A stretch of 64,000 nucleotides of DNA from an uncultured bacterium. Lineage in GTDB: Bacteria; Krumholzibacteriota; Krumholzibacteriia; Krumholzibacteriales; Krumholzibacteriaceae. Positions 23,944 to 39,660 of this stretch are shown piece after piece (position 1 is the first letter of the stretch; every line of letters begins with the position of its first letter). A program made the position numbers and the translations under genes. The stretch lies in contig CAWFAD010000011.1 in assembly GCA_963813815.1 (NCBI GenBank), positions 32,001 through 96,000 on the forward strand, read 5' to 3'. Below the pieces are notes generated by a model that was not told where the DNA came from, made no database searches, and worked only from the letters and a program-made list of their open reading frames with translations.

Positions 23944-26367
23944 CTACCTCGCGAGCACCATCTTCTTCGTTTCCGAGTAGGCGCCCGTCTCGAGCCGGTA
24001 GAAATACACTCCGCTCGCGACGGCCCGCCCCGATGCGTCGCACCCGTCCCAGATCTCGGTATACCGCCCCGCCGTGCGATGCTCCTCAACGAGCGCGCGA
24101 ACGAGCCGCCCCGCGGGGTCGTAGATGCGGAGCGATACGCGCGCCGGCGTCCCGAGGCCGAACTCGACCCGCGTCATCGGATTGAAAGGATTCGGATAGT
24201 TCTGCGCGAGGTAGCTCGCCTCGGGCGGCGGAGGCGTCTCTCCGCCCGTGATCTGCTCGGGCGCGAGAATCGCGAAGCCGCTCTCGTTTCCATGGATATC
24301 GACCGCCGAGACCTTGTAGTAGTAGCCCACACTCCAGCTCCAGCCCGCGTCGAAGCAGATCGTGTCCTCGGGAGAGGCGATGAGGTTCCCCTCATCGGGA
24401 ATGAAATCCTCCGCGATCCCGCGGTACACGCGATAGCCCGCGAGGTCGGCCTCGGTATTGCCGTCCCACGAGAGCTCGAGGCCGTCGGGCACGTAGCTCT
24501 GCTCGGCCGCGAGGCCGAGAGGCAGGGTAGGGGCGAGGTTGTCGACCGAGTAGCCGCTGTCCGGCGCCGATTTCCAGAACACGAAGGGGTCGGACGTGTG
24601 AGCCACCACCTGGAAGTAATGATACTCGCCGCAAGCGGCGGTCGAGTCGAAGAGAGTGGCCACGGGCTTCCCGTATGCCTCCATGTAGAGCGCGTCGACC
24701 GTCTCCACGAGCTCCCAGAAGTAGGTGAGCGCTCCGATCTGCTCGACCCGTACGACGGGCTTGTCGGCCGCGGTATCGAGCTCGGATAGAGACGCGAGGG
24801 GCGAAACGCCCGAGTCGAGGGCGAGCGCCGCCTGCGTCGGACTGATGGCGCGCCAGATCGAGTAGTACGACATATCGCCCGTCATGAAGAGGTCGGGGCG
24901 GGCCGCGTACCAGGAGAGGTACACCTTGCCTCCCTGATCGCCGGGGACGTCGCGGACGGTGTGGATCTCCGGCGACAGCATGCCGGTGCGACCGAACGTG
25001 TCTATGAATTGAACGTAGATGTCGCCGTTCCCATCGCGGTAATCCGACCATGCGACGATCGCGCCGCCCCTGTTATCTGAGGCGATCACGGGATACTCCT
25101 GCGTCTGTGCCGCGGTGCAAAGAGCGACCCCATCCGCGGCCCATTGAACCGCTCCCGAAGGATTCACTCGCTGGGCGTAGATGTCATAGATCCCGCTGCG
25201 GGCGTCGAACCATGAGATGATGGCGCCGCCGTCGACGTCGGAAGCGATGACGGGATAATACTGAGTCCCGGTCGCCGTGCAGACGGCGATGCCGTTGGCG
25301 ATCCACTGGACGACACCCGAGGCATCCAGCTTTTGAGCGTAGATGTCATAGTTGCTGCCGTTGCGATAGTCGTACCACGAGACGATGGCGCCGCCGGCAT
25401 CGTCGGATACGATGACTGGATAATATTGAGCTCCCGTCGCAGTGCAGAGAGCGACGCCGGTCGTCGTCCATTGAACGACTCCAGAGGCGTTCACGCGCTG
25501 GGCATAGATGTCGTAGTTCGCGCTGCGGTAGTCGTACCACGTGACGATCGCGCCGCCCGTCCCGTCGGAGGCAATGGTGGGATACTGCTGATTCCACGCG
25601 ACGGTACAGAGGGCGACGCCGTCGACGGTCCATTGAGCGACTCCAGAGTTGCTCACTCGCTGAGCATAGATGTCATAGTTGCTGCCGTTGCGATAGTCCT
25701 GCCATGCGACGAGGGCTCCGCCGGCGCCGTCTGAGACGGTGGTGAGAGACAACTGGCCGTTCGCCGCCGCGCAGACGGCGACGCCATTGGCGGTCCACTG
25801 AACGACCCCCGAGGCATTCACCCTCTGAGCATAGACATCGTAGTTGGAGCCGCTCCGGTAGTCGTGCCACGTGATGATCGCGCCGCCGACACCGTCCGAG
25901 ACTATCTTCGGGTTCAACTGATCGCCTGTCCCTGCGCACAGAACCACCCCGTTCGCCGCCCACTGAACGGCTCCCGAGGCATCGACCCTCTGCGCGTAGA
26001 TGTCCCAGCTGGTGCTCGTGCGGTAATCGTGCCATGCGACGATCGCGCCGCCCGCGCCGTCGGAGACGATCGCCGGTACCTGCTGGTCAAACGCCATCGT
26101 GCAAAGAGCGACTCCGTTGGCCGTCCACAAGACTTCTCCAGAGGCGCTCACGCGTTGCGCGTAGATGTCCGTGTTCGAGTTGCGGTAGTCGTTCCACGCG
26201 ATGATCGCGCCGCCCGCGCCGTCGGAGCCGATTGCAGGGCGCAATTGATCTCCCGTGGCCGTACAGAGAGCGACGCCGTTTCCTACCCAATAAGCCCAGA
26301 TCGAAGGCACGGCGATTACGAGCGAACCGAGCGCCAGCGCAAACGCAACCTTCATAGCCTTGCTCAT
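23944..26367 (-). CDS. secreted repeat protein (8 repeats, probable beta-propeller) with FN3-like and C-terminal FlgD-Ig/sorting-type domain
   Basis: Signal peptide, 8 repeats of about 54 aa, DLAGYRVYRG...YKVSAVDIHGNES, LAQNYPNPFNP...WDG...VASGVYFYRL. Confidence 0.85.
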   Translation of the reverse strand: MSKAMKVAFALALGSLVIAVPSIWAYWVGNGVALCTATGDQLRPAIGSDGAGGAIIAWNDYRNSNTDIYAQRVSASGEVLWTANGVALCTMAFDQQVPAIVSDGAGGAIVAWHDYRTSTSWDIYAQRVDASGAVQWAANGVVLCAGTGDQLNPKIVSDGVGGAIITWHDYRSGSNYDVYAQRVNASGVVQWTANGVAVCAAANGQLSLTTVSDGAGGALVAWQDYRNGSNYDIYAQRVSNSGVAQWTVDGVALCTVAWNQQYPTIASDGTGGAIVTWYDYRSANYDIYAQRVNASGVVQWTTTGVALCTATGAQYYPVIVSDDAGGAIVSWYDYRNGSNYDIYAQKLDASGVVQWIANGIAVCTATGTQYYPVIASDVDGGAIISWFDARSGIYDIYAQRVNPSGAVQWAADGVALCTAAQTQEYPVIASDNRGGAIVAWSDYRDGNGDIYVQFIDTFGRTGMLSPEIHTVRDVPGDQGGKVYLSWYAARPDLFMTGDMSYYSIWRAISPTQAALALDSGVSPLASLSELDTAADKPVVRVEQIGALTYFWELVETVDALYMEAYGKPVATLFDSTAACGEYHYFQVVAHTSDPFVFWKSAPDSGYSVDNLAPTLPLGLAAEQSYVPDGLELSWDGNTEADLAGYRVYRGIAEDFIPDEGNLIASPEDTICFDAGWSWSVGYYYKVSAVDIHGNESGFAILAPEQITGGETPPPPEASYLAQNYPNPFNPMTRVEFGLGTPARVSLRIYDPAGRLVRALVEEHRTAGRYTEIWDGCDASGRAVASGVYFYRLETGAYSETKKMVLAR
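24991..26289 (-). repeat. 8 tandem coding repeats of about 162-165 bp
   Basis: Consensus W-x-x-NGVALCTA-x3-Q-x2-P-x-I-x-SDG-x-GGAI-x2-W-x-DYR-x4/5-DIYAQRV-x-ASG. Confidence 0.9.
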
Positions 26368-26575
26368 GGTCGTTTCTCCCTTCAAGGATGAATTTCGAAG
26401 CTATTTATTTATAGTAGCATACAGCGACAGCCTCATAAAGCAGAATATATGGCTTCGAAGAGCTTGCTGCCCGCCTTTTGGCTTTGACTCGGCGCGCCAT
26501 GCGCAATACACTGGTCTCGGTGGCGCAATGCTCATTCACCTATGAGACGCGTCTCCGTAAGATGAACCGGGAGCC

Positions 26576-27715
26576 GTGAGCGGGGTTCTCATGAAGCACC
26601 GCTACGTCGCGCTGGATTGGATGCGCGGGATCGTCATGATCCTCATGGCCTTGGACCACGCCTCCGGCGCGTTCAACAAGAGCAGACTCTTCACCGACTC
26701 GTTCTATCTCTATGAAACCGGCATGAGGCTTCCGGCGCTTCAGTTCTTCACGAGATGGATCACCCACATCTGCGCGCCGACGTTTCTCTTTCTCGCCGGG
26801 ACCGCCCTTGCCCTGAGCTTGGAGCGGCGGGGGAGAGCCGGCGAGTCGAACGCCTCCATCGACCGTTACTTGTTGACGCGGGGGCTCATCATCGCCGCGC
26901 TCGATCCGATTCTCATTTCATGGCTCTTCGGCTACGGCGGGATCATGTTTCAGGTCCTCTATGCGATCGGCATATCGCTCATTGTGATGATCCCGCTGAG
27001 GCGTCTCGGATCGAGTTGGCTCTTGGGAACATCCATGGGGTTCATTCTGCTGAGCGAAGCCCTGACCGGAATCCTGCACAGTCTCAACAACGGTCGGCCC
27101 ACGGCGATAGGAACCCTATTGATCCACGGCGGCGTGTATCCTCGTCTCATCGTCTCGTATCCGGTGTTCCCATGGCTCGCGGTGATGATGCTGGGCTTCG
27201 TGTTCGGGAAGAGGCTGCTGCGCTTCAGAGACTCCGGATCGACGCGATGGTCTCCTGCAAAGGCGCTTTTAGCGAGCGGAGCAGCCTCATTGCTCGCATT
27301 CAGCGTCATACGAGATTTAAATGGCTATGGGAATATGATGCTTCTCAGGGAGAGCGGCTCTCTCATCCAATGGCTTCACGTCAGCAAATACCCACCGAGC
27401 TTGTCGTTTCTGACGCTGGAGCTCGGACTGATGGCGCTCGTTCTGAGCCTATTATTCGGGCTTCAAGGCAGGTCCCGCGGACCGATACGGATAAATAGTC
27501 CGATACTCGTTTTCGGGCAGACGGCATTCTTTTTCTATATTCTGCATATCGTGATTCTCGAGCTTTCGGCTCGGGGCCTGCGCGTCCATGCGAGCAGGGG
27601 CCTGGGAACCGCGTACCTAGCGGCGGTGGCCGTTCTCGTTCTTCTCTATCCCTGCTGTCTCTGGTATCGGCGCCATAAGGCTTCCCACCCGAATGGCTGG
27701 GCGCGCTATGTTTAG
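26576..27715 (+). CDS. DUF1624 / heparan-alpha-glucosaminide N-acetyltransferase-like membrane protein
   Basis: LDWMRGIVMILMALDH, FFTRWITHICAPTFLFLAG, KYPPSL motifs. Confidence 0.85.
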   Translation: MSGVLMKHRYVALDWMRGIVMILMALDHASGAFNKSRLFTDSFYLYETGMRLPALQFFTRWITHICAPTFLFLAGTALALSLERRGRAGESNASIDRYLLTRGLIIAALDPILISWLFGYGGIMFQVLYAIGISLIVMIPLRRLGSSWLLGTSMGFILLSEALTGILHSLNNGRPTAIGTLLIHGGVYPRLIVSYPVFPWLAVMMLGFVFGKRLLRFRDSGSTRWSPAKALLASGAASLLAFSVIRDLNGYGNMMLLRESGSLIQWLHVSKYPPSLSFLTLELGLMALVLSLLFGLQGRSRGPIRINSPILVFGQTAFFFYILHIVILELSARGLRVHASRGLGTAYLAAVAVLVLLYPCCLWYRRHKASHPNGWARYV

Positions 27716-27798: not shown

Positions 27799-29553
27799 TT
27801 ACTGAATCTCCCTCGACTGCTCGTCGAAAAGGACGCGGTAGAGGCCGCCCGCCTGATAGAGCGTGTTGTGCGTGCCCGACTCGACCAGCCTGCCTTCGCT
27901 CAGCACGAAGATACGGTCCGCGTTCGTCACGCTCGTGAGGCGGTGGGCGATGATGATGACGGTTTGGCCTCTCACCTTCTCGAAGTAGCTCCCGAGCACC
28001 TGCCGCTCCGTGCGCGGATCGAGGGCGGAGGTGGCCTCGTCGAGGACGTGGATGCGGGGCGCCTTGAGGAGCGACCGCGCGAGCGCGAGCCGCTGGCGCT
28101 CTCCGCCCGAGAGGCGGAGCCCCTGCTGGCCGACGATCGTCTCGAGCCCCTCCGGCAGATTCGCGAGAAACTCCCCGAGAGAGGCCGTCTCCATGGCCGC
28201 GACGAGCTCCGCCTCCGTGGCCCGCGGCCGGGCCATCCGCAGGTTCCCCGCGATCGTGTCGTGAAACAGCTGCGTCTCCTGCGGAACGACGCCGATCGCG
28301 CGGCGGAGGCTCTTGAGCTTCCAGCGCCTGAGGTCGAGATCGTCGATGTAGACCGCGCCTTGCTGCGGATCGAGGTAACGGGCGATGATCGCGGCGAGCG
28401 TGGATTTGCCGCTTCCCGAGGGACCGACGAGCGCGATCACCTGCCCCGGCTCCACCGAGAGACTGATATTCTCTATCGCCCTCGCGCCGTTGGGCCACGT
28501 GAGGCCGACCTGCTCGAGGCGGATCGCGCCCGTGACGCGGGGCGGCGCCGTCGCCTCCGCGTGCTCCTGAATCTGCGGTTCCGTGTCGATGAGGTCGTAC
28601 ACTCGGGCGAGCGACGCCCTCGCCATCTGGAGCTCGATGTTGATGTCGATGAGCTGCGAGATCGGCCGGTAGAGACGGCTCGCGAGCGTGTAGAACGCCA
28701 CGAGACTGCCGAGGCTGAGCGTTCCGCCGAGCACCCGTCTGCCTCCCATGAGAAATACGAGGATAAAGGCGCCGGTCGACATGACGTCCGCGAGCGAGAC
28801 TTGTCCCGCGCCGATCACGGAGAGGGCGAGGTTGCTGCGGATCCACGGCCGCGACACGCGGACGAGGCGGCGGGTCTCGGCCTTCTCCCGGATAAGTTCC
28901 TGAACGAGGCGGATGCTCGAAATCCGCTCCTCGAGAAACGAGAAGAGGTCGGAGATCGCGTCCCTCGCCTTGATTCCCTCTTCCTGAATGCGGTGGTTGA
29001 TTTTCGCGAGGATGGCGACGAGGAACGGATAGACGAGGAGGAGCAGGAGCGTGAGGCTCGGATCGATCCAGAAGAGGATCGTCAATATCCCGACGATCGT
29101 CAAAACGTCCTGAATCGCGTTGACGATCGTGTGGGCGGCCGCGTGCTGGAGCACGTCGATGTCGGAGCTGATTCTCGCGAGTATGTCGCCCGTCTGCTCT
29201 CCGCGGAAGAAGAAGGGGGAGAGGCGTTCGACGTGCTCGAAGGCCTGCCGGCGGTAGTCGAAGAGGATCCGAAGCCCCGAGTAGCTGTAGAGCCAGACCG
29301 AGATGAGACGGAATCCCGTGCGAAAGACGAGCACGCCGAGAAGTATGGACACGAGCATGAGAAGAAGCGAGTAGTTGCCGTCGCCGATCGCGCGGTCGAT
29401 GATGGTTCGCAGGATCAGCGGATCGATCAGGTTGAGAAAGACGTTGATGATGAGGCAGACCGCGATTTCGGCCTGAAGGCCGTAGTAGGGGCTCACGCGC
29501 TCGCGGAGGAAGCGCCGCAAGAGCCCGCGTCGGCTGGGATTCGCCTGTTTCAT
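27799..29553 (-). CDS. ABC exporter (TMD+NBD), no N-terminal C39 peptidase domain; putative RiPP exporter
   Basis: 6-TM domain, GPSGSGKST, LSGGERQR, LDEATSALD; 584 aa; overlaps HlyD stop. Confidence 0.9.
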   Translation of the reverse strand: MKQANPSRRGLLRRFLRERVSPYYGLQAEIAVCLIINVFLNLIDPLILRTIIDRAIGDGNYSLLLMLVSILLGVLVFRTGFRLISVWLYSYSGLRILFDYRRQAFEHVERLSPFFFRGEQTGDILARISSDIDVLQHAAAHTIVNAIQDVLTIVGILTILFWIDPSLTLLLLLVYPFLVAILAKINHRIQEEGIKARDAISDLFSFLEERISSIRLVQELIREKAETRRLVRVSRPWIRSNLALSVIGAGQVSLADVMSTGAFILVFLMGGRRVLGGTLSLGSLVAFYTLASRLYRPISQLIDINIELQMARASLARVYDLIDTEPQIQEHAEATAPPRVTGAIRLEQVGLTWPNGARAIENISLSVEPGQVIALVGPSGSGKSTLAAIIARYLDPQQGAVYIDDLDLRRWKLKSLRRAIGVVPQETQLFHDTIAGNLRMARPRATEAELVAAMETASLGEFLANLPEGLETIVGQQGLRLSGGERQRLALARSLLKAPRIHVLDEATSALDPRTERQVLGSYFEKVRGQTVIIIAHRLTSVTNADRIFVLSEGRLVESGTHNTLYQAGGLYRVLFDEQSREIQ

Positions 29554-30620
29554 CGCTTCTTCGTCCCGGCGAGCCTTTCGATGAGGAGGTGGCCGAGAGA
29601 GACCTTCTCATCGACGATGATCCGCGCCTGCCCTTTCATTCCGTCATAGAGCGGGCCCGGCGCGGTCGAGGGGTCGAAGGACACCTTTACGGGAAAGCCG
29701 CCGCCGCTCCGGCAGTCGTCCACGAAATCGAGCCGCCCGGCGAGGGTGCCGTGGAGAAGCCAAGGGTATCCCTCGAGCCGGATTTTGACCCTGTGTCCGG
29801 GACGCGCGGAGGCGCGGCCGGCGTCGAAGACGGCGCCCTCGAAGCGGTCGGCCGGGCCGGTCGAGAGGCGCAGTATCTCCTCGCCGCGCGTTACGGTTCG
29901 TCCCATGAGCTCGAAGAGGTTCGCGCCGAGCACGATCCCCCGGGTATCCGCCGCGAGCGTGTCGAGGGCGAGCATGCGGTCCGTTTCACCCACAGCCGCG
30001 CGCTCCTCGGCGATTTGCCCGGCGAGATTCCGAATTTCCCCGTCGAGCTTCTCGATTTGGTCCCGATGCCGCGCTTCGAGCACGGGGCCCGCGGCCTCGG
30101 CTTCCTTGAGCGCCACCCGGGCGAGATCGAGGGCGAGCTCGGAATCCTGAAGCTCCAGCTTCGTCGTGAGCCCCATGTCCCAGAGCTGCTTCTTGAGATC
30201 GAACTGTATCTCGGCGCTCGAAAGCTCGAGCCGGCTCCGCTCGAGATCCCGCGAGGCTTGGAGAACCTCGGCGGGGTGGATCTGCGAGGCGAGTCGCCCG
30301 CGCTCGGCTCGGAGCACGACGATGCGGTCCGACAGGTTCGCGATCCGCGCCCTGATCTGCTCGTCCTGCGCGCGGAGCGGGGAGGACTCGAATGCGACGA
30401 GCGGCGCGCCGGCCCTAACGCTGTCCCCCGGCGCCACGAAAATCCCTTCGACGCGGCCTTCCCACGGCGCATACACAGCGACGGTGCCGCCGGCGAGACG
30501 GCCCTCGGCGATGACGACCCGGTCGATTCGCACAAAGAGGAGGAGACAGACCACGGCGACGAAAAGGCAGGAGCCGAGCGTCAAAAGGGGACGCAAAAGA
30601 GGCAGTGGGCGACGATGCAT
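29550..30620 (-). CDS. HlyD-family membrane fusion (secretion adaptor) protein
   Basis: N-terminal TM then VVIAEGRL, lipoyl-like VAPGDSVRAGAPL, long coiled coil, VKIRLEGYP..HGTLAG, GMKGQARI. Confidence 0.85.
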   Translation of the reverse strand: MHRRPLPLLRPLLTLGSCLFVAVVCLLLFVRIDRVVIAEGRLAGGTVAVYAPWEGRVEGIFVAPGDSVRAGAPLVAFESSPLRAQDEQIRARIANLSDRIVVLRAERGRLASQIHPAEVLQASRDLERSRLELSSAEIQFDLKKQLWDMGLTTKLELQDSELALDLARVALKEAEAAGPVLEARHRDQIEKLDGEIRNLAGQIAEERAAVGETDRMLALDTLAADTRGIVLGANLFELMGRTVTRGEEILRLSTGPADRFEGAVFDAGRASARPGHRVKIRLEGYPWLLHGTLAGRLDFVDDCRSGGGFPVKVSFDPSTAPGPLYDGMKGQARIIVDEKVSLGHLLIERLAGTKKR

Positions 30621-30678: not shown

Positions 30679-30789
30679 TCAGAGAGGGCCGATTTCGCAC
30701 GCGGGCGGATACTCGGCGCACTGCATGCAGTGCGTGAGCGGCGGTTTCACGTGCGCGATGTTCGTGGAATGCTTGACGACGAACTTCAT
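30679..30789 (-). CDS. putative RiPP precursor P6: MKFVVKHSTNIAHVKPPLTHCMQCAEYPPACEIGPL
   Basis: Hand-translated; GAGGTG RBS; shared leader and TxCxxCxExPxxC core. Confidence 0.88.
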   Translation of the reverse strand: MKFVVKHSTNIAHVKPPLTHCMQCAEYPPACEIGPL

Positions 30790-30816
30790 TTATTTTCACC
30801 TCTTCGATGGGACGAA

Positions 30817-30843
30817 GTGGCGCGGTCGCAGGGACCGCGCCAC
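30817..30843 (-). terminator. GC-rich hairpin between P5 and P6 (attenuator or mRNA-stabilising stem)
   Basis: GTGGCGCGGTC-GCAGG-GACCGCGCCAC, 11-bp perfect stem, only a short U tract. Confidence 0.5.
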
Positions 30844-30884
30844 TCGCCGAGCCATATCGATCGACGATTATCGAGAAATCGCGA

Positions 30885-30992
30885 TCAAATGGGGTCGATG
30901 ACGCAGGCTGCCGGATTCTCCTTGCAGAGCCAGCACAGCGTATAGTTGACCCTCTTCGCCACCTCGGCGTTACGCTTTACGACGAACTTCAT
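30885..30992 (-). CDS. putative RiPP precursor P5: MKFVVKRNAEVAKRVNYTLCWLCKENPAACVIDPI
   Basis: Hand-translated; GGGAGG RBS; shared leader and core. Confidence 0.88.
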   Translation of the reverse strand: MKFVVKRNAEVAKRVNYTLCWLCKENPAACVIDPI

Positions 30993-31038
30993 TGTTTCCC
31001 TCCCTTCCCTTTCCTTGCCCGTACGGGCTCACCTGGCG

Positions 31039-31137
31039 CTAGAAGCAGAATATGGGGTTTTCCGAGCACTGGGCGCAGCGGGTCGTGGGACCATTATGCG
31101 GTCCGACGCCGTTACGGCCGAGAACGATGAACTTCAT
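31039..31137 (-). CDS. putative RiPP precursor P4: MKFIVLGRNGVGPHNGPTTRCAQCSENPIFCF
   Basis: Hand-translated; GAGGAG RBS; shared leader and core. Confidence 0.88.
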   Translation of the reverse strand: MKFIVLGRNGVGPHNGPTTRCAQCSENPIFCF

Positions 31138-31194
31138 GAGGATCGCTCCTCTCGCAACGATTGGAGATACGGCAGCCGAAATTTAGAGAGTCCC

Positions 31195-31211
31195 TTGAAC
31201 AATCAGTTCAA
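31195..31211. promoter_or_regulatory. inverted repeat TTGAAC-N5-GTTCAA, candidate operator
   Basis: Perfect 6-bp palindromic arms just downstream of the predicted internal promoter. Confidence 0.4.
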
Positions 31212-31224
31212 AAATAACCCTTTA

Positions 31225-31253
31225 ATTTTGTCATAGAGCGCGGCGGGAGTCAA
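31225..31253 (-). promoter_or_regulatory. sigma-70-like promoter for P4-P6-hlyD-ABC
   Basis: TTGACT-17 nt-CAAAAT with a TG extended -10 element. Confidence 0.5.
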
Positions 31254-31275
31254 GGTATTTGGGAGTGGCCCGCGG

Positions 31276-31314
31276 AAAGGGAAATGGCGCGCTCCCGGAG
31301 GAGCGCGCCATTCC
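31276..31314 (-). terminator. intrinsic terminator after P1-P3
   Basis: Minus strand GGAATGGCGCGCTCC-TCCG-GGAGCGCGCCATTTC followed by CCTTT. Confidence 0.6.
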
Positions 31315-31388
31315 ATGGCGCATTCTCAGCACTTCGGAAATCCGCAAAGTGCTTGCGGGCACCGATGCTCATCGCGCGCCGGCTCCGA

Positions 31389-31487
31389 TCAGTAGCAGGC
31401 GAGTGGATTCTCCTTGCAGAGAAAGCACATTGTGATCCTCGGCATGGCCGATTTGCGCGTCTCGGCGGGCTTTACGACGAACTTCAT
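31389..31487 (-). CDS. putative RiPP precursor P3: MKFVVKPAETRKSAMPRITMCFLCKENPLACY
   Basis: Hand-translated; AAGGAGGTG RBS; shared leader and core. Confidence 0.88.
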   Translation of the reverse strand: MKFVVKPAETRKSAMPRITMCFLCKENPLACY

Positions 31488-31490
31488 ACT

Positions 31491-31514
31491 TCACCTCCTT
31501 ACGATGAACTTGAT
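31491..31514 (-). pseudogene. relic leader fragment ATC-AAG-TTC-ATC-GTA-AGG-AGG-TGA (IKFIVRR*)
   Basis: Matches the precursor start ATG AAG TTC ATC GT except ATG>ATC; preceded by GAGGGGG. Confidence 0.45.
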
Positions 31515-31528
31515 GTGTTCCCCCTCGC

Positions 31529-31645
31529 TCACTCGCACCAGTGCGGGTCTTCCGAGCAGAGGGCGCAGAGCGTATGTCTCGGAATAACGCCATCCGAAGG
31601 CTTCGCATGGCGCGTTTCGGGGTTTGATGTCACGATGAACTTCAT
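31529..31645 (-). CDS. putative RiPP precursor P2: MKFIVTSNPETRHAKPSDGVIPRHTLCALCSEDPHWCE
   Basis: Hand-translated; GGAGGAG RBS; shared leader and core. Confidence 0.88.
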   Translation of the reverse strand: MKFIVTSNPETRHAKPSDGVIPRHTLCALCSEDPHWCE

Positions 31646-31665
31646 AGCGCCTCTCCTCCCTATTA

Positions 31666-31770
31666 TCACTCTTCGCAGGCGCGGGGCTCCTCATGGCAAA
31701 GCCAGCAGCGCGTCAAATGAGTGGAATTCGATCCGCGCGTCCCGAGCAACGGCTTCACGACGAATCTCAT
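31666..31770 (-). CDS. putative RiPP precursor P1: MRFVVKPLLGTRGSNSTHLTRCWLCHEEPRACEE
   Basis: AAGGAGG RBS; is the tail of track ORF 31666..32661; shared leader and core. Confidence 0.88.
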   Translation of the reverse strand: MRFVVKPLLGTRGSNSTHLTRCWLCHEEPRACEE

Positions 31771-31816
31771 GAGTACCCTCCTTTCCCCTAGGCTGAATTG
31801 GATGCTGAATTCGTTA

Positions 31817-31848
31817 AGCTTGACATATATGAAATAAGCTGTCAACAT
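31817..31848. promoter_or_regulatory. overlapping divergent promoters or palindromic site between precursors and maturase operon
   Basis: TTGACA (31820-25) and TGTCAA (31840-45) form an inverted pair in an AT-rich 96-bp gap. Confidence 0.5.
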
Positions 31849-31866
31849 ATTTAACGTGAGACTGTT

Positions 31867-32778
31867 ATGGAAAAAGAGATAATCCTCGTCGGAATTCCCG
31901 GATCGGGTCTCGCGAGGGAGATTGCCGCGCATCTCAGCGGCACTCTTTTTACTCCGAGGATCCTGTCCGTCGACGCGCCCTTCGAGGGGCGGGCGGTGAC
32001 GTTTGCTCCCGGGACCATCGTGTGGGAAGGGGTCGAGCTGCTCGAGGCGAGCGCCATATTCGCGGAGTGTTCGGTATTCAACTGGCCGCAGGCGCTCCTT
32101 CCCTTCGAAAACGATTCCAGTGGGCTCGCGTATAAGGAATGGGCCATCTTCCAGCGGGAGGCGCGTTCGCTCGTCGTATCCTCGCTCTGGGCGGCGGGGA
32201 GGGAGCGCCCGATGATAAACCCGCCGTCCGCGGCTCACCTCGCTCTCTCGCCCTCGATAGCGCTCGATTATCTGAAGCAAGCGGGGATCCAGGTCCATCC
32301 GTGGAGCGTCGAATCGGCTCCGCCGGATGAAGGGGCGGGAGCGGGGTTGGTTCTCGATGTCTGCGGGCGCGAGCGCTGGCATTCCCCGCGCCGGCCGCCG
32401 GCCGGCGACCCGGCTCTCGTGCTCGAGCCGCACGATAATGAGGTCGTGACCTTCATGGTCGCGGGCGGCTCGGTCCTCGGAGCGCTTCGCTACGCGCGAG
32501 GGGAATCGTGGGCGAAACGGCAGACGGGATCGATCGGGGCGGATGAGCCCGGGCTCACGATCGATCTCGCGCCTTTTTCCGAAGCGGCCGACCTCGCGAA
32601 ACGCTCGACCGAAGCGCTCGGGCTCGTTTTCGCGGCGGTATCCGTTCGCGCGGGCGCTCATCCCCCCTCGGTCATGCTCGTCGAGGCGAGCCCCGATCTC
32701 GAATCATGGAACGCGAAACTCGCGGGGCGCGTCGCGCGCTCCCTCGCCGATTGTCTCGTCGCCGCGGCCAGCTCCTGA
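31867..32778 (+). CDS. degenerate ATP-grasp (RimK-like) fold protein
   Basis: MINPP...LDYLKQAGIQV, LAKRSTEALGLVFAAVSV...MLVEASP; usual catalytic Lys, Asp and E-x-N not evident. Confidence 0.6.
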   Translation: MEKEIILVGIPGSGLAREIAAHLSGTLFTPRILSVDAPFEGRAVTFAPGTIVWEGVELLEASAIFAECSVFNWPQALLPFENDSSGLAYKEWAIFQREARSLVVSSLWAAGRERPMINPPSAAHLALSPSIALDYLKQAGIQVHPWSVESAPPDEGAGAGLVLDVCGRERWHSPRRPPAGDPALVLEPHDNEVVTFMVAGGSVLGALRYARGESWAKRQTGSIGADEPGLTIDLAPFSEAADLAKRSTEALGLVFAAVSVRAGAHPPSVMLVEASPDLESWNAKLAGRVARSLADCLVAAASS

Positions 32779-32810: not shown

Positions 32811-34175
32811 ATGAAAGCGTCGCGCTACAATAAGCTCTTCCAGGCTTCGAACGGCGCGTGGCTCGCCTTCAACGGGTGGACCACCTCGCTCGCCGAGATC
32901 GAGCCGGAGCAGCTCGAGTTCTTCAGGGCCCTTCTCGCCGATCCCGACCATGTTCCGTGCGACACGGCCGAGAAACGCGATATGCGCGAGGCGATGATCG
33001 AGGCTAATTTTCTCATCGAGGACGGCATGGACGAGCTCAGCGCGACCAAGGTCGACAGCATGCGCGACCGGTTCGGCGGAGATTACCTGTATCTCACGAT
33101 AGCGCCGACCCTCAACTGCAACTTCCGGTGCGATTACTGCTACGAGGAGCACCTCAAGATCACGATGCCGAAGGCGATCGAGGCCGCGCTCCTGCGGTGG
33201 ACCGAGGAGCGCACGAAGGGGTTGAGCGAGCTTCATATCACCTGGTACGGGGGGGAGCCGCTTCTGCCCGGCGCTTACGATGCGGTGGAGCGCCTTTCCG
33301 GGGCGTTCCAGAAGCTGGCGGGAGAGCGGGGGATGAAGTACGGCGCTCATCTCGTCACGAACGCGTACCTCCTCGATAGGCCGAAGATGGAGTCGCTCGT
33401 CCGGCTCGGCGTCAATCTCGTGCAGGTGACGCTCGACGGCCCTCCCGCGATTCACGACGCGCGCCGGCATCTCGCCGGCGGACAGGGGACCTTCGCGAAG
33501 ATCGTCGAGAACGTCAAGAGCACGGTCGATCTCGCGGAGTTTCAGCTCAGGATCAACGTCGACCGGCGCAACGCGCTCTCCGCGCTCGAGGTCATCGAGA
33601 TTCTCGATGGAGAGGGGCTCACGGGGAAGATCCGTCCCTATCTCGCGCAGGTGATCTCCGGCGGCGGGACGTGCGGCAACATCAACGAGAGCTATTTCTC
33701 GAGCGAGGAATTCGCGGCGATGGAGATAGGGATCTACCGCGAAGCGGCGGCGAGGGGGCTCCGCATCATGCGCTACCCGTTCAGGCATCCCGGGGGTTTC
33801 TGCACGGCGGACCGCGCGAACGCCTACGTCGTCTCGCCGAACGGCTCGCTCTTCAAATGCTGGAACGACGTCACCATGAATCCCGACCGATCCGTGGGCT
33901 CGATCCTCGACGAGCAGGAGCCGTATCAGAAGCGCAACGAGGATCGCTGGCTCGCCTGGGATTCTCTCGAGAAAAAGGGGTGTCGCTCCTGCGAGATCCT
34001 CCCGATGTGCCACGGTGGATGCCCGATGACGGCGCTCGAGCATCCGGAGCGGGATCGAGGCGCGTGCGACCACTATAAGTTCCACCTCGAGCAGCTTCTC
34101 GAGCTCAAGTATCTCGCGCAGGCGGGCGGCGTCGAAGCGGGCGACGAATCTCCGAAGAGGAGGTGCGGCGGGTGA
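32811..34175 (+). CDS. radical SAM/SPASM-domain peptide maturase
   Basis: CNFRCDYC, WYGGEPLL, QVTLDG; SPASM C-x18-C...CxxCx5Cx3C-x14-C; about 90-aa N-terminal extension (MKASRYN...), possibly an RRE. Confidence 0.92.
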   Translation: MKASRYNKLFQASNGAWLAFNGWTTSLAEIEPEQLEFFRALLADPDHVPCDTAEKRDMREAMIEANFLIEDGMDELSATKVDSMRDRFGGDYLYLTIAPTLNCNFRCDYCYEEHLKITMPKAIEAALLRWTEERTKGLSELHITWYGGEPLLPGAYDAVERLSGAFQKLAGERGMKYGAHLVTNAYLLDRPKMESLVRLGVNLVQVTLDGPPAIHDARRHLAGGQGTFAKIVENVKSTVDLAEFQLRINVDRRNALSALEVIEILDGEGLTGKIRPYLAQVISGGGTCGNINESYFSSEEFAAMEIGIYREAAARGLRIMRYPFRHPGGFCTADRANAYVVSPNGSLFKCWNDVTMNPDRSVGSILDEQEPYQKRNEDRWLAWDSLEKKGCRSCEILPMCHGGCPMTALEHPERDRGACDHYKFHLEQLLELKYLAQAGGVEAGDESPKRRCGG

Positions 34176-35113
34176 CGCGCGTCGGAATCATCGGCCCCGG
34201 CGACCGCGAGGAGATGACCCGGCTCGCGATCCGTATCGAGGAGCGCGGCGCCGAGGCGGCTATTCTCGACAGCCGGGTGAATTCCTCTCTGCGGGTGGCG
34301 CCGGGGGAGGAGAGCCTCTGCGGCGTGCCGCTCGCGGAATTCACCGCCTTTTACGTCGCCGACCTCGGGCTGCCGAGCCCCGTCGCGCGCGGGCCGGACG
34401 GAGAGGTCGACAGAGCCGCGAGCGAGCGAGCGCTCGCCCATTCGCGGCGCCGCCTCGCGGCGTGGGACGCGCTCCTCGCCCGTCTCGAATTGCGCTGCAC
34501 GGTCGTCAATCCATACCGCACGCACGACATTCACGCCCTGAAGCCGCACGAGGCGGAGGCGTACATCCGGCTCGGCCTGCCGGTGCCGTATGCTCGCGCG
34601 ACCTCGGACGCCGAGGCGCTGCTCGCTTTGCCGGAGGTTTCATCGGCGTCGTGGATTCGCAAGGGAATGGTGGGGGGGAGCGATTACACGGAGGCGTACG
34701 TTCCGCCGCTCTCTCTCGAGGAGGCGCGGACGAGGCTCCGGCTCGGGCCCATCATGGTGCAGGAGAGGATAGAAGGGGATAATCTGCGCGCCTTCGTGCT
34801 CGACGGCGCCATGATCGGCGCCGCCGAGGTCATCAGTCACTCGGGCTCCGAGACGGACACACGCCGGGGCAGAATCAGGGTGCGGCGGGTCGATTTGCCC
34901 GAGGAGGCCTCGCGCGCGGCGGTGGCCGCCGCCGCCTGCTGGGGCATGTCCTTCGGGGCCGTCGACTTCATGATCGATGCGCGCAGCGGACGATACTGCA
35001 TTCTCGAGTGCAACTCGGCCCCCTTCTTCGTGAACTTCGAGCGCATGTCCGGCCATCCGATCGCGAGCCGGCTCGCCGAATACCTCTGTCGCAGGCGGCC
35101 GGGCGCTGCATAG
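34172..35113 (+). CDS. ATP-grasp ligase (RimK-like)
   Basis: VVNP...LK...GLPVP, IRKGMVGG, MVQERIEG..LRAFV, GAVDF...ILECNSAP; GTGA overlap with rSAM stop. Confidence 0.85.
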   Translation: MTRVGIIGPGDREEMTRLAIRIEERGAEAAILDSRVNSSLRVAPGEESLCGVPLAEFTAFYVADLGLPSPVARGPDGEVDRAASERALAHSRRRLAAWDALLARLELRCTVVNPYRTHDIHALKPHEAEAYIRLGLPVPYARATSDAEALLALPEVSSASWIRKGMVGGSDYTEAYVPPLSLEEARTRLRLGPIMVQERIEGDNLRAFVLDGAMIGAAEVISHSGSETDTRRGRIRVRRVDLPEEASRAAVAAAACWGMSFGAVDFMIDARSGRYCILECNSAPFFVNFERMSGHPIASRLAEYLCRRRPGAA

Positions 35114-35131
35114 ACGGCGCGCCGTCGAGAG

Positions 35132-35932
35132 GTGAGGATCGTGAACGAACCTCGATCGATGTTCGAGACGCCTCTTCTGCAGAGGATATACGATCACATC
35201 CGCGAGGAGCGGGATCCCGGGTTTTCGTTCTTCTCCGGCGAGACGATCCCGTGGGCCGGCCCCGTCGCCTCTCTCGCCGACACGCGGGTCGCGATCGTCT
35301 CGTCGGGCGCATTTCACGAGAAGGGGGACGCGCCGTTCGAATGCCTCGAGTCGCTCTTCGGGGATACGAGCTTTCGCGTGATTCCGCACGGGAGCGGGAA
35401 CGTCGATCTCGATGCTCCATACGTCGATCAGAAATACGCCGTGCACGACCTCGAGGTGGCGCTTCCCATGAAGGCGCTCGACGGGCTTCACGCGGAGCGG
35501 CGCATCGGGCCGCCTGCGCCGCGGCATTTCAGCTTCTGCGGCGGCATCGTGCACCCTCTGCCCGGACTTCACGAGAGCGCGGCGCGGGTGGAGAGGATTC
35601 TCCGCGAGGACGGCGCGGGGGCCGTCGTGCTGCTCCCGACCTGCTCGCTCTGCGTGCAGACGATCTCCGTCGTGGCGCGCGAGCTCGAGTCACTCGGCAT
35701 TCGCACGGTGGCCGTTTCGCTCATCCCGGAGCTCTCGCGGATCGTCGGGACGCCGCGGACCGTGAGCGTGCACTTTCCGTTCGGGGCCCCGTGCGGCAAT
35801 CCGGGGCACGCGGAGCTGCACCGGGCGGTCTTGCTCGAGGCGCTCTCGATGCTCGAGGACGCGCGCGAGCCGGGAGAGGTCCGCGCGTCGAACAACGCTT
35901 GGCGCAAATCGCCGGCCGGCCCGGAGGCATGA
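35132..35932 (+). CDS. glycine/betaine/D-proline reductase selenoprotein B (GrdB/PrdB)-like protein, Cys form
   Basis: RVAIVSSGA, GDTSFRVIP, HFSFCG, LPTCSLCVQTISVVARELESLGIRTV, PRTVSVHFPFGAPCG; no in-frame TGA. Confidence 0.75.
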   Translation: MRIVNEPRSMFETPLLQRIYDHIREERDPGFSFFSGETIPWAGPVASLADTRVAIVSSGAFHEKGDAPFECLESLFGDTSFRVIPHGSGNVDLDAPYVDQKYAVHDLEVALPMKALDGLHAERRIGPPAPRHFSFCGGIVHPLPGLHESAARVERILREDGAGAVVLLPTCSLCVQTISVVARELESLGIRTVAVSLIPELSRIVGTPRTVSVHFPFGAPCGNPGHAELHRAVLLEALSMLEDAREPGEVRASNNAWRKSPAGPEA

Positions 35933-35962
35933 GCCGGCGGCGTCCGCGAAGGAGGCTCCGGT

Positions 35963-36520
35963 ATGGCGCTCAAGGTGCTGGGGATAGCGGGAAGCCTGCG
36001 AAAGGGCTCGTACAACCGGGCGCTGCTCAGGGCCGCGGTCGAGCTCGCCCCGGAGGGAATGACGATCGAGATAGCCGAGATCGACGGGATCCCCCCCTTC
36101 AACGAGGACCTCGAGAAGCAGGGGATGCCGCCCGCGGTCGCGGAGCTCAGGCGGCGCGCGGCGGAGGCCGGCGCCCTGCTCATCGCGACCCCGGAGTACA
36201 ACCACTCGGTTCCGGGCGTTCTCAAGAACGCCATCGACTGGCTCTCGAGAGGCTCCGACCAGCCGCTCGACGGAAAACCCGCCGCGATCATGGGCGCTTC
36301 GACCGGTATGATCGGCACGGCCCGCGCTCAGGTGCATCTGCGGGATCTGGCGGTCACGGTGAACATGGCCGTGCTCGCCCAGCCGGAGGTGCTCGTCGCG
36401 CGCGCCGGAGAGCGGTTCGACGGGCGCCCCGAGCTCACGGATGAGCCGACGAGGCGGCGCGTACGGGCGCTGCTCGAGGCCCTGCGGGTCTGGGCGACGG
36501 CTCTCGGGGAACGGAAATAG
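35963..36520 (+). CDS. NAD(P)H-dependent FMN reductase
   Basis: GSLRKGSYN, ATPEYNHSVPGVLKNAIDWLSR, GTARAQ. Confidence 0.9.
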   Translation: MALKVLGIAGSLRKGSYNRALLRAAVELAPEGMTIEIAEIDGIPPFNEDLEKQGMPPAVAELRRRAAEAGALLIATPEYNHSVPGVLKNAIDWLSRGSDQPLDGKPAAIMGASTGMIGTARAQVHLRDLAVTVNMAVLAQPEVLVARAGERFDGRPELTDEPTRRRVRALLEALRVWATALGERK

Positions 36521-36652
36521 CCGGGAAACGGCGGCATTTCTTCATTTCACAAGTAGTTTGCTCCCGGGTCGCCCCCCTTTTACATTTGATATGGAAACGC
36601 CCCCTGTGATAGCATTCGCCGAGCTTTGGGAGGAAGTGGAGGAATTTGCGTA

Positions 36653-38974
36653 ATGAAGCATAGATTTGCCGTTGCCGCGGCGCTCGCGGCGGCCATCCTC
36701 GGGGCGTCGGGAGCCCTTGCGCAGGGGCCCGGTTCGGTCGTGCCGGGGGCCGCCCCCGGGCAGCAGCGAGCCGCGGCGGCGGGGGCCGTCATCAGCCGCA
36801 TCGAGATCACGGGGAACCATTTCGTGTCGCGGCAGAACATTCTCCAGATATTTGGAATCCGGGCGGGGGACGAGGTGCGGGAGGAACGCGTCAGCGAGGC
36901 CATCAGGCGGCTCGTGCAGACGAAGAACTTCGCGGATGTGTCGGTTTCGGCCCGGACGTCGGGGGACAGCCTCATCGTCGTGCTGGCCGTGGAGGAGTAC
37001 CCTCGCGTCAAGGAGATCCGCGTTCAAGGGACCGACAAGGTCAAGCGCGAGGACATCGAAGGGAAAATCCTGCTCAAGGAGGGATACTTCGCGCGCCCCG
37101 CCCTCTTCTCGCAGGACGTCGCCGCGATCAAGGCGCTCTACGCGGAGAAGGGGTACAACAACGCCTCCGTCGAAGTGAAGAAGATCGCGGTCGGCGACGC
37201 GCACAACGTCGTCGTCGCGTACGCGATCGCCGAGGGGAAGAAGATCAAGATCAGACACATCGACTTTCTCGGCGTGGGGTCCATCGAATCGCCCGAGCTT
37301 CGCAAGATGATAGAGACGAAGGAATCAAGGTGGTGGCGGGGCGGAGAGCTCAAGCCCGCGACCCTCGACGCGGATCTCAAGCTCATCAAGGAGTTCTACG
37401 GCACGCGCGGCTACCTCGACGCCGAAGTCTCGGTAGCGAAACAGGAGCAGTCGGGCGACGGCAAGCATCTCGATCTCTACATTCGGGTCGACGAGGGGCC
37501 GCAGTACCGTCTCGGCGCTCTCACGTGGTCGGGCAACACGATCGTCAAGGACGAGGAGATACGGAGCTTCGTTCACATCGAGAAGGGGGATCCGTTCGCG
37601 ACGGACCGGATCGAGATGCTGCAGTACGACATCAACGGCAAGTACTGGGAGCAGGGATACATCTACAGCCGCGTTATCCCGGTGCGGCGCGTCCGCAACC
37701 GGCGGATCGATCTCGCACTCCGCATCGAGGAGGGGAATCCCGCTTCGATCAAGGAGATCAAGATCTCGGGCAACACGAAGACCTTCGAGACCGTTATCCG
37801 GCGCGAGCTCAAGACGTATCCGGGCGACCGGTTCATCCTCACCGACGTGCAGCGGAGCCTCCGGGAAATCGTGGCCCTCGGCTACTTCAGCGGGCCGCCG
37901 AAGATCAATACGGAGCAGGTGAACGAGCAGGGGGACATCAACCTGCTCATTGCCGTCGAGGAAAAGCAGACGGGCAACTTCCGTTTCGGAGCGGGATTCT
38001 CGCAGCTCAACTCGCTTTCGGGCTTCTTCGGGGTTCAGGAGAACAACCTCTTCGGGCGCGGCAAGGGCGTCTCCCTCGACTGGGAGTTCGGCAGGTACCG
38101 CGAGAGCTTCAATTTTCAGTACACGGAGCCGTACTTCCGGGGCACGCAGAACACCGTGGCGTTCTCGCTGTACAACTGGATTCAGGACCGAGTGCAGCAG
38201 CAGTATTACACCGACCGCCGCAAGGGCGCCTCGCTCTCGCTCGGACGTCCGGTCCCGTGGCTCGATTACACGCGCCTCTACTCGAGCTACCGCCTCGAGC
38301 AGGTGGAGCTTTCCAACTTCTCGACCCTCTATCCCGACATGGGCGCCCTCCGGGGCGTCGAATGGCCGCAGGTGAAGAGCAGCGTGCTGCTGAGCCTCAC
38401 GCGCAACTCGACCGACAACCCCTCGCACCCGACGAAGGGATCGGTGAACACGCTCAGCGCCGAGTTCTGCGGCGGCGTGCTCCAGGGGAACGTGAAGTAC
38501 ATGCGCTTCATGGCCGAAACGTCGTGGTTCCGCACGCTCTTCTGGAAATTCACCCTCCACATGAATATGGAGCTCGGCGCGATCGACGGATACCGGAACC
38601 CCGACGAGGTGCAGGATTACGAGAAGTTCCGGCTCGGCGGCAACCGCCGCTACGCGCTCCGCGGCTACGATTACTACGAGGTCGTTCCCGAGGGGAACGA
38701 CGCGTACGTCGGCGGGCGTTTCATGGCGAGCTTCACCCACGAGCTGCTCTTTCCGTTCACCGACGCCGTGTACGGCCTCCTGTTCTTCGACGCCGGAAAC
38801 ACGTGGAACAGTTTCGGCACGGCCGACCTTTTCAACCTGCGGCGCGGGCTCGGGCTCGGCATTCGGATCGAGATGCCCGCGATCGGCAATCTCGGCTTCG
38901 ATTACGGCTACGGCTACGACAAGGTCGGCGGGCCCGCCTGGGAGCCGCATTTCACCTTCGGCACGATGTTCTAA
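36653..38974 (+). CDS. bamA: outer membrane protein assembly factor BamA
   Basis: Signal peptide, POTRA repeats (ISGNTKT..VIRRE), LRGY, FFDAGN, C-terminal Phe. Confidence 0.95.
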   Translation: MKHRFAVAAALAAAILGASGALAQGPGSVVPGAAPGQQRAAAAGAVISRIEITGNHFVSRQNILQIFGIRAGDEVREERVSEAIRRLVQTKNFADVSVSARTSGDSLIVVLAVEEYPRVKEIRVQGTDKVKREDIEGKILLKEGYFARPALFSQDVAAIKALYAEKGYNNASVEVKKIAVGDAHNVVVAYAIAEGKKIKIRHIDFLGVGSIESPELRKMIETKESRWWRGGELKPATLDADLKLIKEFYGTRGYLDAEVSVAKQEQSGDGKHLDLYIRVDEGPQYRLGALTWSGNTIVKDEEIRSFVHIEKGDPFATDRIEMLQYDINGKYWEQGYIYSRVIPVRRVRNRRIDLALRIEEGNPASIKEIKISGNTKTFETVIRRELKTYPGDRFILTDVQRSLREIVALGYFSGPPKINTEQVNEQGDINLLIAVEEKQTGNFRFGAGFSQLNSLSGFFGVQENNLFGRGKGVSLDWEFGRYRESFNFQYTEPYFRGTQNTVAFSLYNWIQDRVQQQYYTDRRKGASLSLGRPVPWLDYTRLYSSYRLEQVELSNFSTLYPDMGALRGVEWPQVKSSVLLSLTRNSTDNPSHPTKGSVNTLSAEFCGGVLQGNVKYMRFMAETSWFRTLFWKFTLHMNMELGAIDGYRNPDEVQDYEKFRLGGNRRYALRGYDYYEVVPEGNDAYVGGRFMASFTHELLFPFTDAVYGLLFFDAGNTWNSFGTADLFNLRRGLGLGIRIEMPAIGNLGFDYGYGYDKVGGPAWEPHFTFGTMF

Positions 38975-39047
38975 AAAGTGGTTTCACCGGGAGGGAAAAG
39001 TACTATATTTGGTTAATTTCCCGTTCGCCTAAAAGGAGGATGTTCAC

Positions 39048-39590: not shown

Positions 39591-39660
39591 CATTCGTTCG
39601 GGCGGCCCGCGTGCCGGCCGCGCATCGCGGCGGCGCGGGTGAAGGAAGGGATTCAGTAAG

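Follow-up and report, generated by a model that had tools for sequence, protein, structure and literature searches.

Six tandem small genes beside an ATP-grasp/radical SAM gene set: probable precursors of a crosslinked and exported peptide family

The window analysed here is a stretch of 64,000 nucleotides (nt) from an uncultured bacterium of the Krumholzibacteriaceae (positions 32,001 to 96,000 of contig CAWFAD010000011.1, assembly GCA_963813815.1), and all coordinates below are those of the window. At 30679-31770 its minus strand carries six tandem open reading frames (ORFs) of 32-38 amino acids (aa). We regard it as very likely that they encode the precursors of a cluster for peptides made by the ribosome and modified post-translationally (RiPPs), in which a shared enzyme set would introduce a probable Thr-Glu lactone and Cys-derived crosslinks into products destined for export. 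The crosslink chemistry is proposed by analogy with known enzymes.

The precursor array and its peptide family

The six precursors share the start M[KR]F[IV]V and the core T-x-C-x-x-C-x-E-x-P-x-x-C (6/6), and the invariant columns of their MAFFT alignment are M1, F3, V5 and the T, C, C, E, P and C of the core. Each was recognized by its ORF, its Shine-Dalgarno (SD) site, the motif and its match to a hidden Markov model (HMM) of the six peptides. Precursor 1 (31666-31770, 34 aa, MRFVVKP...TRCWLCHEEPRACEE) matches this model with E 3.0e-18, precursor 2 (31529-31645, 38 aa, MKFIVTS...TLCALCSEDPHWCE) with E 8.7e-17 and precursor 3 (31389-31487, 32 aa, MKFVVKP...TMCFLCKENPLACY) with E 1.2e-18; they are followed by precursor 4 (31039-31137, 32 aa, MKFIVLG...TRCAQCSENPIFCF, E 2.0e-17), precursor 5 (30885-30992, 35 aa, MKFVVKR...TLCWLCKENPAACVIDPI, E 1.7e-15) and precursor 6 (30679-30789, 36 aa, MKFVVKH...THCMQCAEYPPACEIGPL, E 1.6e-17), all on the minus strand. 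Every one starts with ATG, and a purine-rich SD core lies 5-12 nt upstream (listed for the six as GGAGGG, GGGAGGAG, AAGGAGG, GAGAGGAG, GGGAGGG and GAAGAGGTG). The GC content at their third (GC3, 0.69-0.84) and second (GC2, 0.39-0.54) codon positions falls in the same range as in the adjoining real genes; for contrast, the ORF 35008-36444 (plus strand, 478 aa), which overlaps real genes and was rejected as spurious, has a GC3 of 0.50. Searched against the six frames of the 2.53-Mb genome, the six-peptide HMM returned just these ORFs, with E from 1.2e-18 to 1.7e-15, the next matches standing at E 0.76 and 0.89. The pattern exceeds chance, and the genome holds the six copies only.

An earlier note, made from the sequence of this stretch, had pointed out six small ORFs with a common leader and core and a strong SD for each; ORFs and SD sites are found where it placed them, and its six hand-translated cores are exact, letter for letter. 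It had also called the ORFs unannotated and supposed that gene calling would miss such frames, which holds in part: precursors 1-3 are absent from the public protein collection and none of the six carries a name, but the exact sequences of precursors 4-6 are present there, unnamed, and many other members of the family are called. A spurious 331-aa ORF (31666-32661, minus strand) overlaps real genes and contains precursor 1, whose absence from the collection may reflect its burial in that frame.

Within the array the invariant residues differ synonymously only: Thr is encoded by ACG, ACA or ACC, Glu by GAG or GAA, Pro by CCC, CCG or CCA and Val5 by GTG, GTA, GTT or GTC, and all 18 Cys codons are TGC. 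Codon-level comparison between genomes was based on two orthologue pairs from G018 and G031, which represent another genus of the same family and hold two copies each in identical gene order. All 5 silent changes of pair B lie in the leader start or the core and all 5 replacements in linker residues 11-18. Pair A shows 3 silent changes plus the stop codon, and its 10 replacements comprise seven in the linker, one GTG/ATG exchange at the start, one at leader residue 7 and one in the core, where it hits a variable position. What evolves fast is the linker that joins the leader start to the core. Since variation at the invariant residues is silent only, replacements between genomes concentrate in the linker and the family counts 101 members, the sequences argue that the six ORFs are real, conserved coding genes. 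Codon-level conservation at the invariant residues is what the earlier note had named as decisive, and the two pairs display it.

A profile of ten peptides was searched against 1.84 billion representative proteins at E <= 1e-3. It gave 105 matches, four of which (P0001, P0006, P0096 and P0104, 255-662 aa) were set aside as repeat artefacts, leaving 101 plausible members, three of the window's own precursors included. The pattern T.C..C.E.P..C is exact in 96 of the 101, so the invariance of six positions and their spacing, proposed from the array, extends to the family as a whole. The remaining five depart at one of these positions each: P0073 has P>H, P0077 and P0089 P>A (P0077 additionally has I at the D/N position), P0088 has G for the second C and P0098 has T>S. 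Glu is invariant in 101 of 101 and Thr in 100, the last member having Ser. In alignments A3 and A8 (80 rows) these six positions are again invariant, but their rows exclude the artefacts, the five departing members and any extended or two-core ones, so that 96/101 is the unbiased figure. The consensus reads MKFIV[KE]P, linker, [IH]T[ML]C[AVW][LK]CSE[DN]PR[FAW]C, tail, with a linker of 8-36 residues (median 12), a core of 13 and a tail of 0-41 (median 3). No family peptide scanned matched Pfam or NCBIfam at threshold, and no family cluster looked up bears a name.

Precursor copies number 1-12 per locus (12 in L033, 7 in L024, 6 in the window). The idea, raised in the earlier note, that the array resembles a natural combinatorial library is supported insofar as arrays of divergent copies characterize the family, but loses force because most of the variable core positions are strongly biased (S in 77/96 members, D or N in 90/96, R in 70/96, L in 63/96). 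Some relatives are built differently. Distant-subgroup precursors, encoded in Atribacteria and unclassified metagenome-assembled genomes (L029 3304-3768, L031 10001-10443, L027 10001-10153), are 66-75 aa long, start with MKFITTPERKK and in most cases contain two copies of the core motif, and those of L034 (4034-4789) and L045 (12-515) carry, ahead of the same core, long linkers rich in Cys (as many as 8 additional ones).

Both genomes of genus g4, in the same family, encode the peptides, as do 6 of 208 genomes across the phylum, this genome included. A scan of species-representative genomes with the single pattern CALCSEDP yielded 14 loci, labelled in their sequence records as Planctomycetota, Acidobacteriota, Atribacteria, Mcinerneyibacteriota and unclassified bacteria. 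Such patchy, cross-phylum occurrence would fit a mobile accessory cluster.

The conserved gene neighbourhood and its enzymes

On the minus strand of the window, the six precursors are followed by genes for an HlyD adaptor (30620-29550) and an ABC exporter (29553-27799); on the plus strand, divergent from the array, lie genes for a 303-aa protein, a radical S-adenosylmethionine (rSAM)/SPASM protein, an ATP-grasp protein and a 266-aa protein. The precursors adjoin an rSAM/SPASM gene, the setting in which the earlier note had advised a search with an HMM of the six peptides. The ATP-grasp pair and the PrdB-like gene had escaped that note; they make the system more than a Cys-rich rSAM peptide.

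Searching the 14 genome loci with the window proteins by tblastn, we found a homologue of the rSAM protein in 10 (L021-25, L027-29, L031 and L033; 39-63% identity), of the active ligase in 9, of the 266-aa PrdB-like protein in 7 and of the 303-aa degenerate paralogue in 6, and HlyD and ABC genes together in 5. In three of the four loci without the rSAM gene (L026, L030 and L032), the contig ends no more than about 140 nt from the peptide. Planctomycetota, Acidobacteriota and unclassified genomes have the gene set next to their peptides, and relatives from the phylum and the few metagenome contigs with flanking sequence show the same gene pattern; the metagenome contigs scanned were mostly shorter than 2.3 kb and so added little to the synteny counts. 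In the distant subgroup (L027, L029 and L031), rSAM protein and ligase are 39% and 30% identical to those of the window, and the ligase homologue of L027 (6234-7214, minus strand) contains an internal stop codon, being possibly a pseudogene or an assembly error. Two further neighbours, an acyltransferase (26576-27715) and an NADPH-dependent FMN reductase, whose gene (35963-36520, plus strand) directly follows the PrdB-like one, were considered as cluster members and left out because neither has a counterpart in the other loci.

The rSAM/SPASM peptide maturase (32811-34175, plus strand, 454 aa) was recognized by NCBIfam maturase models and invariant Cys residues. Its true start is MKASRYN at 32811, where the homologues begin, the ORF listed from 32706 being too long. 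The CX3CX2C motif (C103, C107, C110) and a seven-Cys SPASM set (C331, C350, C391, C394, C400, C404, C419) are invariant in 11 homologues, and the SPASM domain model TIGR04085 matches with E 3.1e-16, features that identify rSAM/SPASM maturases in general. The best family model, TIGR04463, aligns near full length with 299.6 bits, short of its cut-off of 525; the second-best, that of the Clo7bot maturase (TIGR04334), aligns over its positions 1-435 of 440 and yields 294.1 bits where its cut-off is 600, and is followed by CefB, the geopeptide maturase, FlmE/OhkG and PapB. As the best models all represent maturases of Cys-rich peptides and none reaches its cut-off, the enzyme forms a new subfamily among them.

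The product of the gene at 34163-35113 (plus strand, 316 aa) was identified as an active, PsnB-like ATP-grasp macrocyclase by its profile match to the PDB entry 7drm_A and by invariant catalytic residues. The family profile aligns with 7drm_A over its full length (E 4.8e-45, 157 bits), then with the graspetide synthetases 9bou, 7m4s, 5ig8, 5ig9 and 7mgv, and reaches at most 58.8 bits with RimK-type ligases. K167, R209, D232, R234, E282 and N284 are invariant among the homologues, and R209 and D232/R234 align to Arg213 of PsnB and to its DFR233-235 loop once the chain positions are shifted by 21, residues that the available text of the PsnB preprint describes as critical. Against the curated graspetide model TIGR04187 the ligase scores 55.9 bits (cut-off 350). 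By sequence it has what marks a graspetide enzyme, being apparently a member of the MdnB/MdnC/PsnB line of macrocyclases whose catalytic residues are intact. The peptides likewise provide the graspetide combination of a hydroxyl or amine donor and an Asp/Glu acceptor, with Thr in 100 members, Ser in one and Glu in all 101.

The 303-aa protein (31867-32778, plus strand), encoded divergently from the array, matches no Pfam or NCBIfam model and is linked to the ligase by profile-profile alignment. BLASTP between the two window proteins gave nothing (E 3.6), and only profile-profile comparison joined them: hhalign of an 11-member profile of the 303-aa family against the ligase profile gave a probability of 97.8% and E 1.2e-12 over 285 columns, and the same family profile matches 7drm_A with E 5.8e-6. 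The ligase residues K167, R209, E282 and N284 are replaced in the window protein by L, T, L and E, respectively, and these columns are not conserved in its family. The protein is a catalytically degenerate paralogue of the ligase.

The 266-aa protein (35132-35932, plus strand) was assigned as a Cys-type PrdB/GrdB-like protein from the NCBIfam PrdB and Pfam GRDB models. The leading NCBIfam model is that of D-proline reductase PrdB, TIGR04483, with E 8.8e-27; the alignment takes in model positions 24-229 of 238 and scores 94.1 bits, short of the 300 required, and the GrdF, GrdH and GrdB models rank after PrdB. The Pfam model GRDB recognizes 4 of 7 homologues, and in the Atlas the neighbouring clusters are GRDB too. 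In the 7 homologues C171-x-x-C174 is invariant within a PTC-x-x-C motif (PTCSLC), and a further Cys lies in an invariant GAPCG. We would call it a Cys-type form because this CxxC stands against the active motif UxxCxxC of GrdB, as given in the available text of PMC13188914. A selenocysteine form was considered for the L028 homologue, which has an in-frame TGA (residue 253) next to its normal C-terminus; it was rejected because this TGA is simply the stop codon. No gene for PrdA or a pyruvoyl partner was seen in the cluster, and the AlphaFold2 model of the protein (mean per-residue confidence, pLDDT, 79.6) had no match at E <= 0.001 in a Foldseek search of the PDB.

Downstream of the array, the HlyD-family membrane-fusion adaptor (29550-30620, minus strand) was identified with TIGR01843 (E 2.2e-15), and its homologues, 38-70% identical, directly follow the peptides in other loci. 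The ABC exporter (27799-29553, minus strand), which combines permease and ATPase (Pfam ABC_membrane and ABC_tran), has homologues there with 56-66% identity. It has no N-terminal C39 peptidase domain, aligning to peptidase-containing exporters only from about their residue 140, and no conserved protease was seen in the cluster.

Proposed maturation, alternatives and known systems

The PsnB-like ligase would phosphorylate the invariant Glu and close a side-chain lactone onto the invariant Thr. PsnB makes Thr-Glu lactones on the TTxxxxEE motif of plesiocin, according to the available text of the PsnB preprint, and we propose the same bond here because the T...E span of six residues equals that from the first Thr to the last Glu of this motif. 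The D/N position of the core is Asn or Tyr in 29/96 members and therefore cannot be the acceptor for the ligase; the sole substitution of Thr is Ser, also a hydroxyl donor. The rSAM/SPASM enzyme would use the three invariant Cys for thioether-type crosslinks. The dead paralogue may hold the peptide, or it may complete an asymmetric ligase dimer as its non-catalytic partner; such a pairing of live and dead subunits would be a natural, fixed counterpart of the asymmetric PsnB dimer. The PrdB-like CxxC protein may perform some thiol-dependent step, either as a redox helper for Cys or the rSAM enzyme or in chemistry at the invariant Pro. Several divergent precursors would be served by one enzyme set, with the ABC/HlyD pair exporting the product.

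Several facts weigh against this interpretation. No RNA run is listed with this stretch. Both the rSAM enzyme and the peptides miss the curated cut-off of every named family, so the chemistry rests on analogy, and the leader has none of the motifs known for graspetide leaders. The cluster has neither a protease nor a C39 domain that could remove the leader. Within the same genus the peptides occur in 0 of 15 genomes (62-96% complete). Locus L034 is a true exception to the synteny: its three family peptides are flanked by about 4 kb of other genes per side, with no rSAM or ligase gene among them. Finally, L027, L029 and L031 keep the core motif, yet no PrdB-like gene was detected in them, and the 306-aa gene at the position of the paralogue is not demonstrably homologous (E 0.025).

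According to the alternative that survives best, though we consider it unlikely, the product is an rSAM-only, Cys-crosslinked peptide of the ranthipeptide or sactipeptide type, with Thr and Glu as thioether acceptors instead of a lactone pair; the ATP-grasp enzyme would then not cyclise the peptide but attach amino acids or some other group to it, in the manner of RimK or a peptide ligase. Maturases of Cys-rich peptides do account for the best rSAM models, Thr, Asp and Asn are known as thioether acceptors (Makarova 2022, available text), and RimK-family models match the ligase too (TIGR00768, E 1.4e-12). The ligase profile is, however, far nearer to the Thr-Glu macrocyclase 7drm_A than to RimK-type enzymes, its family retains the graspetide-typical Arg and D-x-R loop, the T...E spacing matches TTxxxxEE, and the single substitute for Thr, Ser, lacks a gamma carbon.

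An elaboration of the lactone-and-crosslink interpretation that we hold to be quite improbable would make the family a new RiPP class. Its plesiocin-type Thr-Glu lactone would surround two rSAM-crosslinked Cys, the live and dead ATP-grasp proteins would form an obligate heterodimer that makes this ring, and the Cys-type PrdB homologue would then act on the core Pro, for instance by using thiols to open the peptidyl-proline ring reductively, which would leave a 5-aminovalerate-like unit in the backbone. If true, such a ring opening would be a post-translational modification without precedent.

Less probable still is that the peptides stay in the cell and give rise there to a redox cofactor or a metal-binding peptide, as the precursors PqqA and MftA do with other rSAM/SPASM enzymes. 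In keeping with such a role are the three invariant Cys, which include a CxxC pair, the adjoining FMN reductase gene, and an operon in which a PrdB-like CxxC protein of redox type accompanies the rSAM/SPASM enzyme. Against it, HlyD and ABC genes follow the peptides in the window, in L042 and in 5 of the 5 close-subgroup genome loci with enough downstream flank; besides, as many as 12 divergent copies stand in one locus, occurrence across the phylum is patchy (6 of 208 genomes) and the FMN reductase is not conserved in other loci. That the six frames are open by chance, in a non-coding spacer made of repeats, as the lower GC (0.55-0.59), direct repeats and hairpins of the region might suggest, is refuted by codon-level and cross-phylum conservation, as it conflicts with the SD sites, the codon-position GC, the silent-only variation at invariant residues, the 101 homologues and the cross-phylum synteny, and has next to no chance of being right.

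Group 2 graspetides, represented by plesiocin and PsnB, are the closest known counterpart of the ligase, for which 7drm_A is the best solved relative, with the Arg, the D-x-R loop and the Mg-binding E-x-N kept; the accession 7DRM occurs in the available text of the PsnB preprint. Like TTxxxxEE, the core offers one invariant Thr and one Glu six residues apart, but it allows one possible ring instead of two, occurs once per peptide instead of four times and contains three invariant Cys and a Pro. The leader MKFIVKP stands at the extreme N-terminus, unlike the LFIEDL of plesiocin, and the cluster adds three components, namely an rSAM/SPASM enzyme, a PrdB-like protein and the dead paralogue of the ligase. 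The lactone is here predicted from the genes.

The cluster resembles Clo7bot and TIGR04463 systems in its tandem short Cys-rich precursors beside an rSAM/SPASM maturase and in the two best maturase models. It differs from them in scores below the cut-offs (525, 600 and 31 bits) and in ATP-grasp and PrdB-like partners that those family names do not include. The six window peptides match nothing in NCBIfam, the Clo7bot model TIGR04333 included, at E <= 1. That model touches 2 of 14 family peptides scanned (6 from the window and 8 further), with 13.7 and 10.2 bits (cut-off 31; E 0.042 and 0.53), and does so with its positions 1-10, in the first ten or so leader residues. The earlier note had suggested a likeness to the Clo7bot leader; the faint leader match and the second-best maturase model agree with it, but membership is not supported. 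As all curated cut-offs are missed, the sequences place the system outside the Clo7bot, TIGR04463 and curated graspetide families.

Ranthipeptides and SCIFF peptides (PapB, CteB) provide another parallel, with rSAM/SPASM enzymes having two auxiliary clusters and with Cys cores near Thr, Asp, Asn or Glu. The maturase matches the PapB model with E 7.1e-31, and a PDB sequence search returned 5wgg_A, a radical SAM domain protein that we take to be CteB (E 2.4e-6). The similarity is weak, leader and core differ, and a ligase pair and PrdB-like protein are added here. The core's three Cys, all invariant, and the kinship of the maturase hint at Cys-to-carbon thioethers as in ranthipeptides and sactipeptides.

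The Grasp-with-SPASM systems of Bacteroidota presumably correspond to ligase TIGR04192 and maturase TIGR04193; the former is not among the 9 NCBIfam matches of our ligase and the latter not among the best 25 of 65 of our maturase. TIGR04193 is named in Table 1 of Makarova 2022, and clusters of this kind in Bacteroidota have already been predicted (Makarova 2022, 'branch 5'; Carter 2026, 'group 14'). From the available text of these studies, the loci share ATP-grasp, SPASM, HlyD and ABC exporter genes with ours and some of their precursors have three conserved Cys, whereas they differ by GG-motif leaders, MKKL starts and the LPL and cluster-23 accessory families. That text does not mention a PrdB/GRDB gene, and MKFIV, CSEDP and CSENP are absent from those of their supplements that were examined. 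A literature search, in which subscription journals lay outside the scope, found CSEDPRFC, CSENPRFC, MKFIVKP, MKFIVEP, LCSEDPR, CSEDPRAC and 'Clo7bot' in no paper, and topic searches of the same scope (ATP-grasp/rSAM, graspetide hybrids, PrdB and RiPP) returned reviews and two graspetide surveys with no description of the family. By analogy, the system would work like a graspetide/rSAM hybrid, in a family without a curated name and with an unusual set of tailoring enzymes.

If the proposed maturation is right, the precursors represent a widespread, unnamed family of peptide natural products, with about 100 clusters at 50% identity in at least 4 phyla by record label, and two well-known crosslinking chemistries are united on a 13-residue scaffold. 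The dead ATP-grasp paralogue and the PrdB/GrdB-like thiol protein would then be components without a described role in peptide maturation. A scaffold that tolerates variation, with up to 12 precursors per enzyme set, is attractive for engineering constrained peptides; as the carriers are uncultured environmental bacteria, heterologous expression is the sole route to the product.

Spacers of the array and flanking genes

Just upstream of precursor 3, at 31500-31514 on the minus strand, lies what the sequence and a copy of repeat family D4 (31501-31514) indicate to be the relic of a seventh leader start. It reads IKFIV, its ATG now being ATC, and its remnant GTAAGGAGGTGA serves as the SD of precursor 3. 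This decayed start appears to be a trace of array turnover.

Two perfect GC-rich hairpins occupy the two longest spacers. The first (31283-31312, inverted repeat I1, 13-nt arms) lies in the 251 nt that separate precursors 3 and 4, a gap with a fold z of -3.93, and is followed by a promoter-like site (31253-31225, minus strand; sigma-70-like, 9/12 consensus match). The second (30816-30844, inverted repeat I2, 12-nt arms) is located between precursors 5 and 6, in a spacer with a fold z of -3.67. Hairpins and promoter-like site, the latter a consensus-level match, may set the ratio of precursor to exporter transcripts, and the array may consist of two transcription units or be attenuated.

Farther from the array, the minus strand encodes a protein of 813 aa (23944-26385) that consists of beta-propeller repeats and ends in a type IX secretion sorting domain. 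On the plus strand, 36626-42002 is a housekeeping outer-membrane block with genes for BamA, LpxD and a fused LpxC-FabZ (436 aa).

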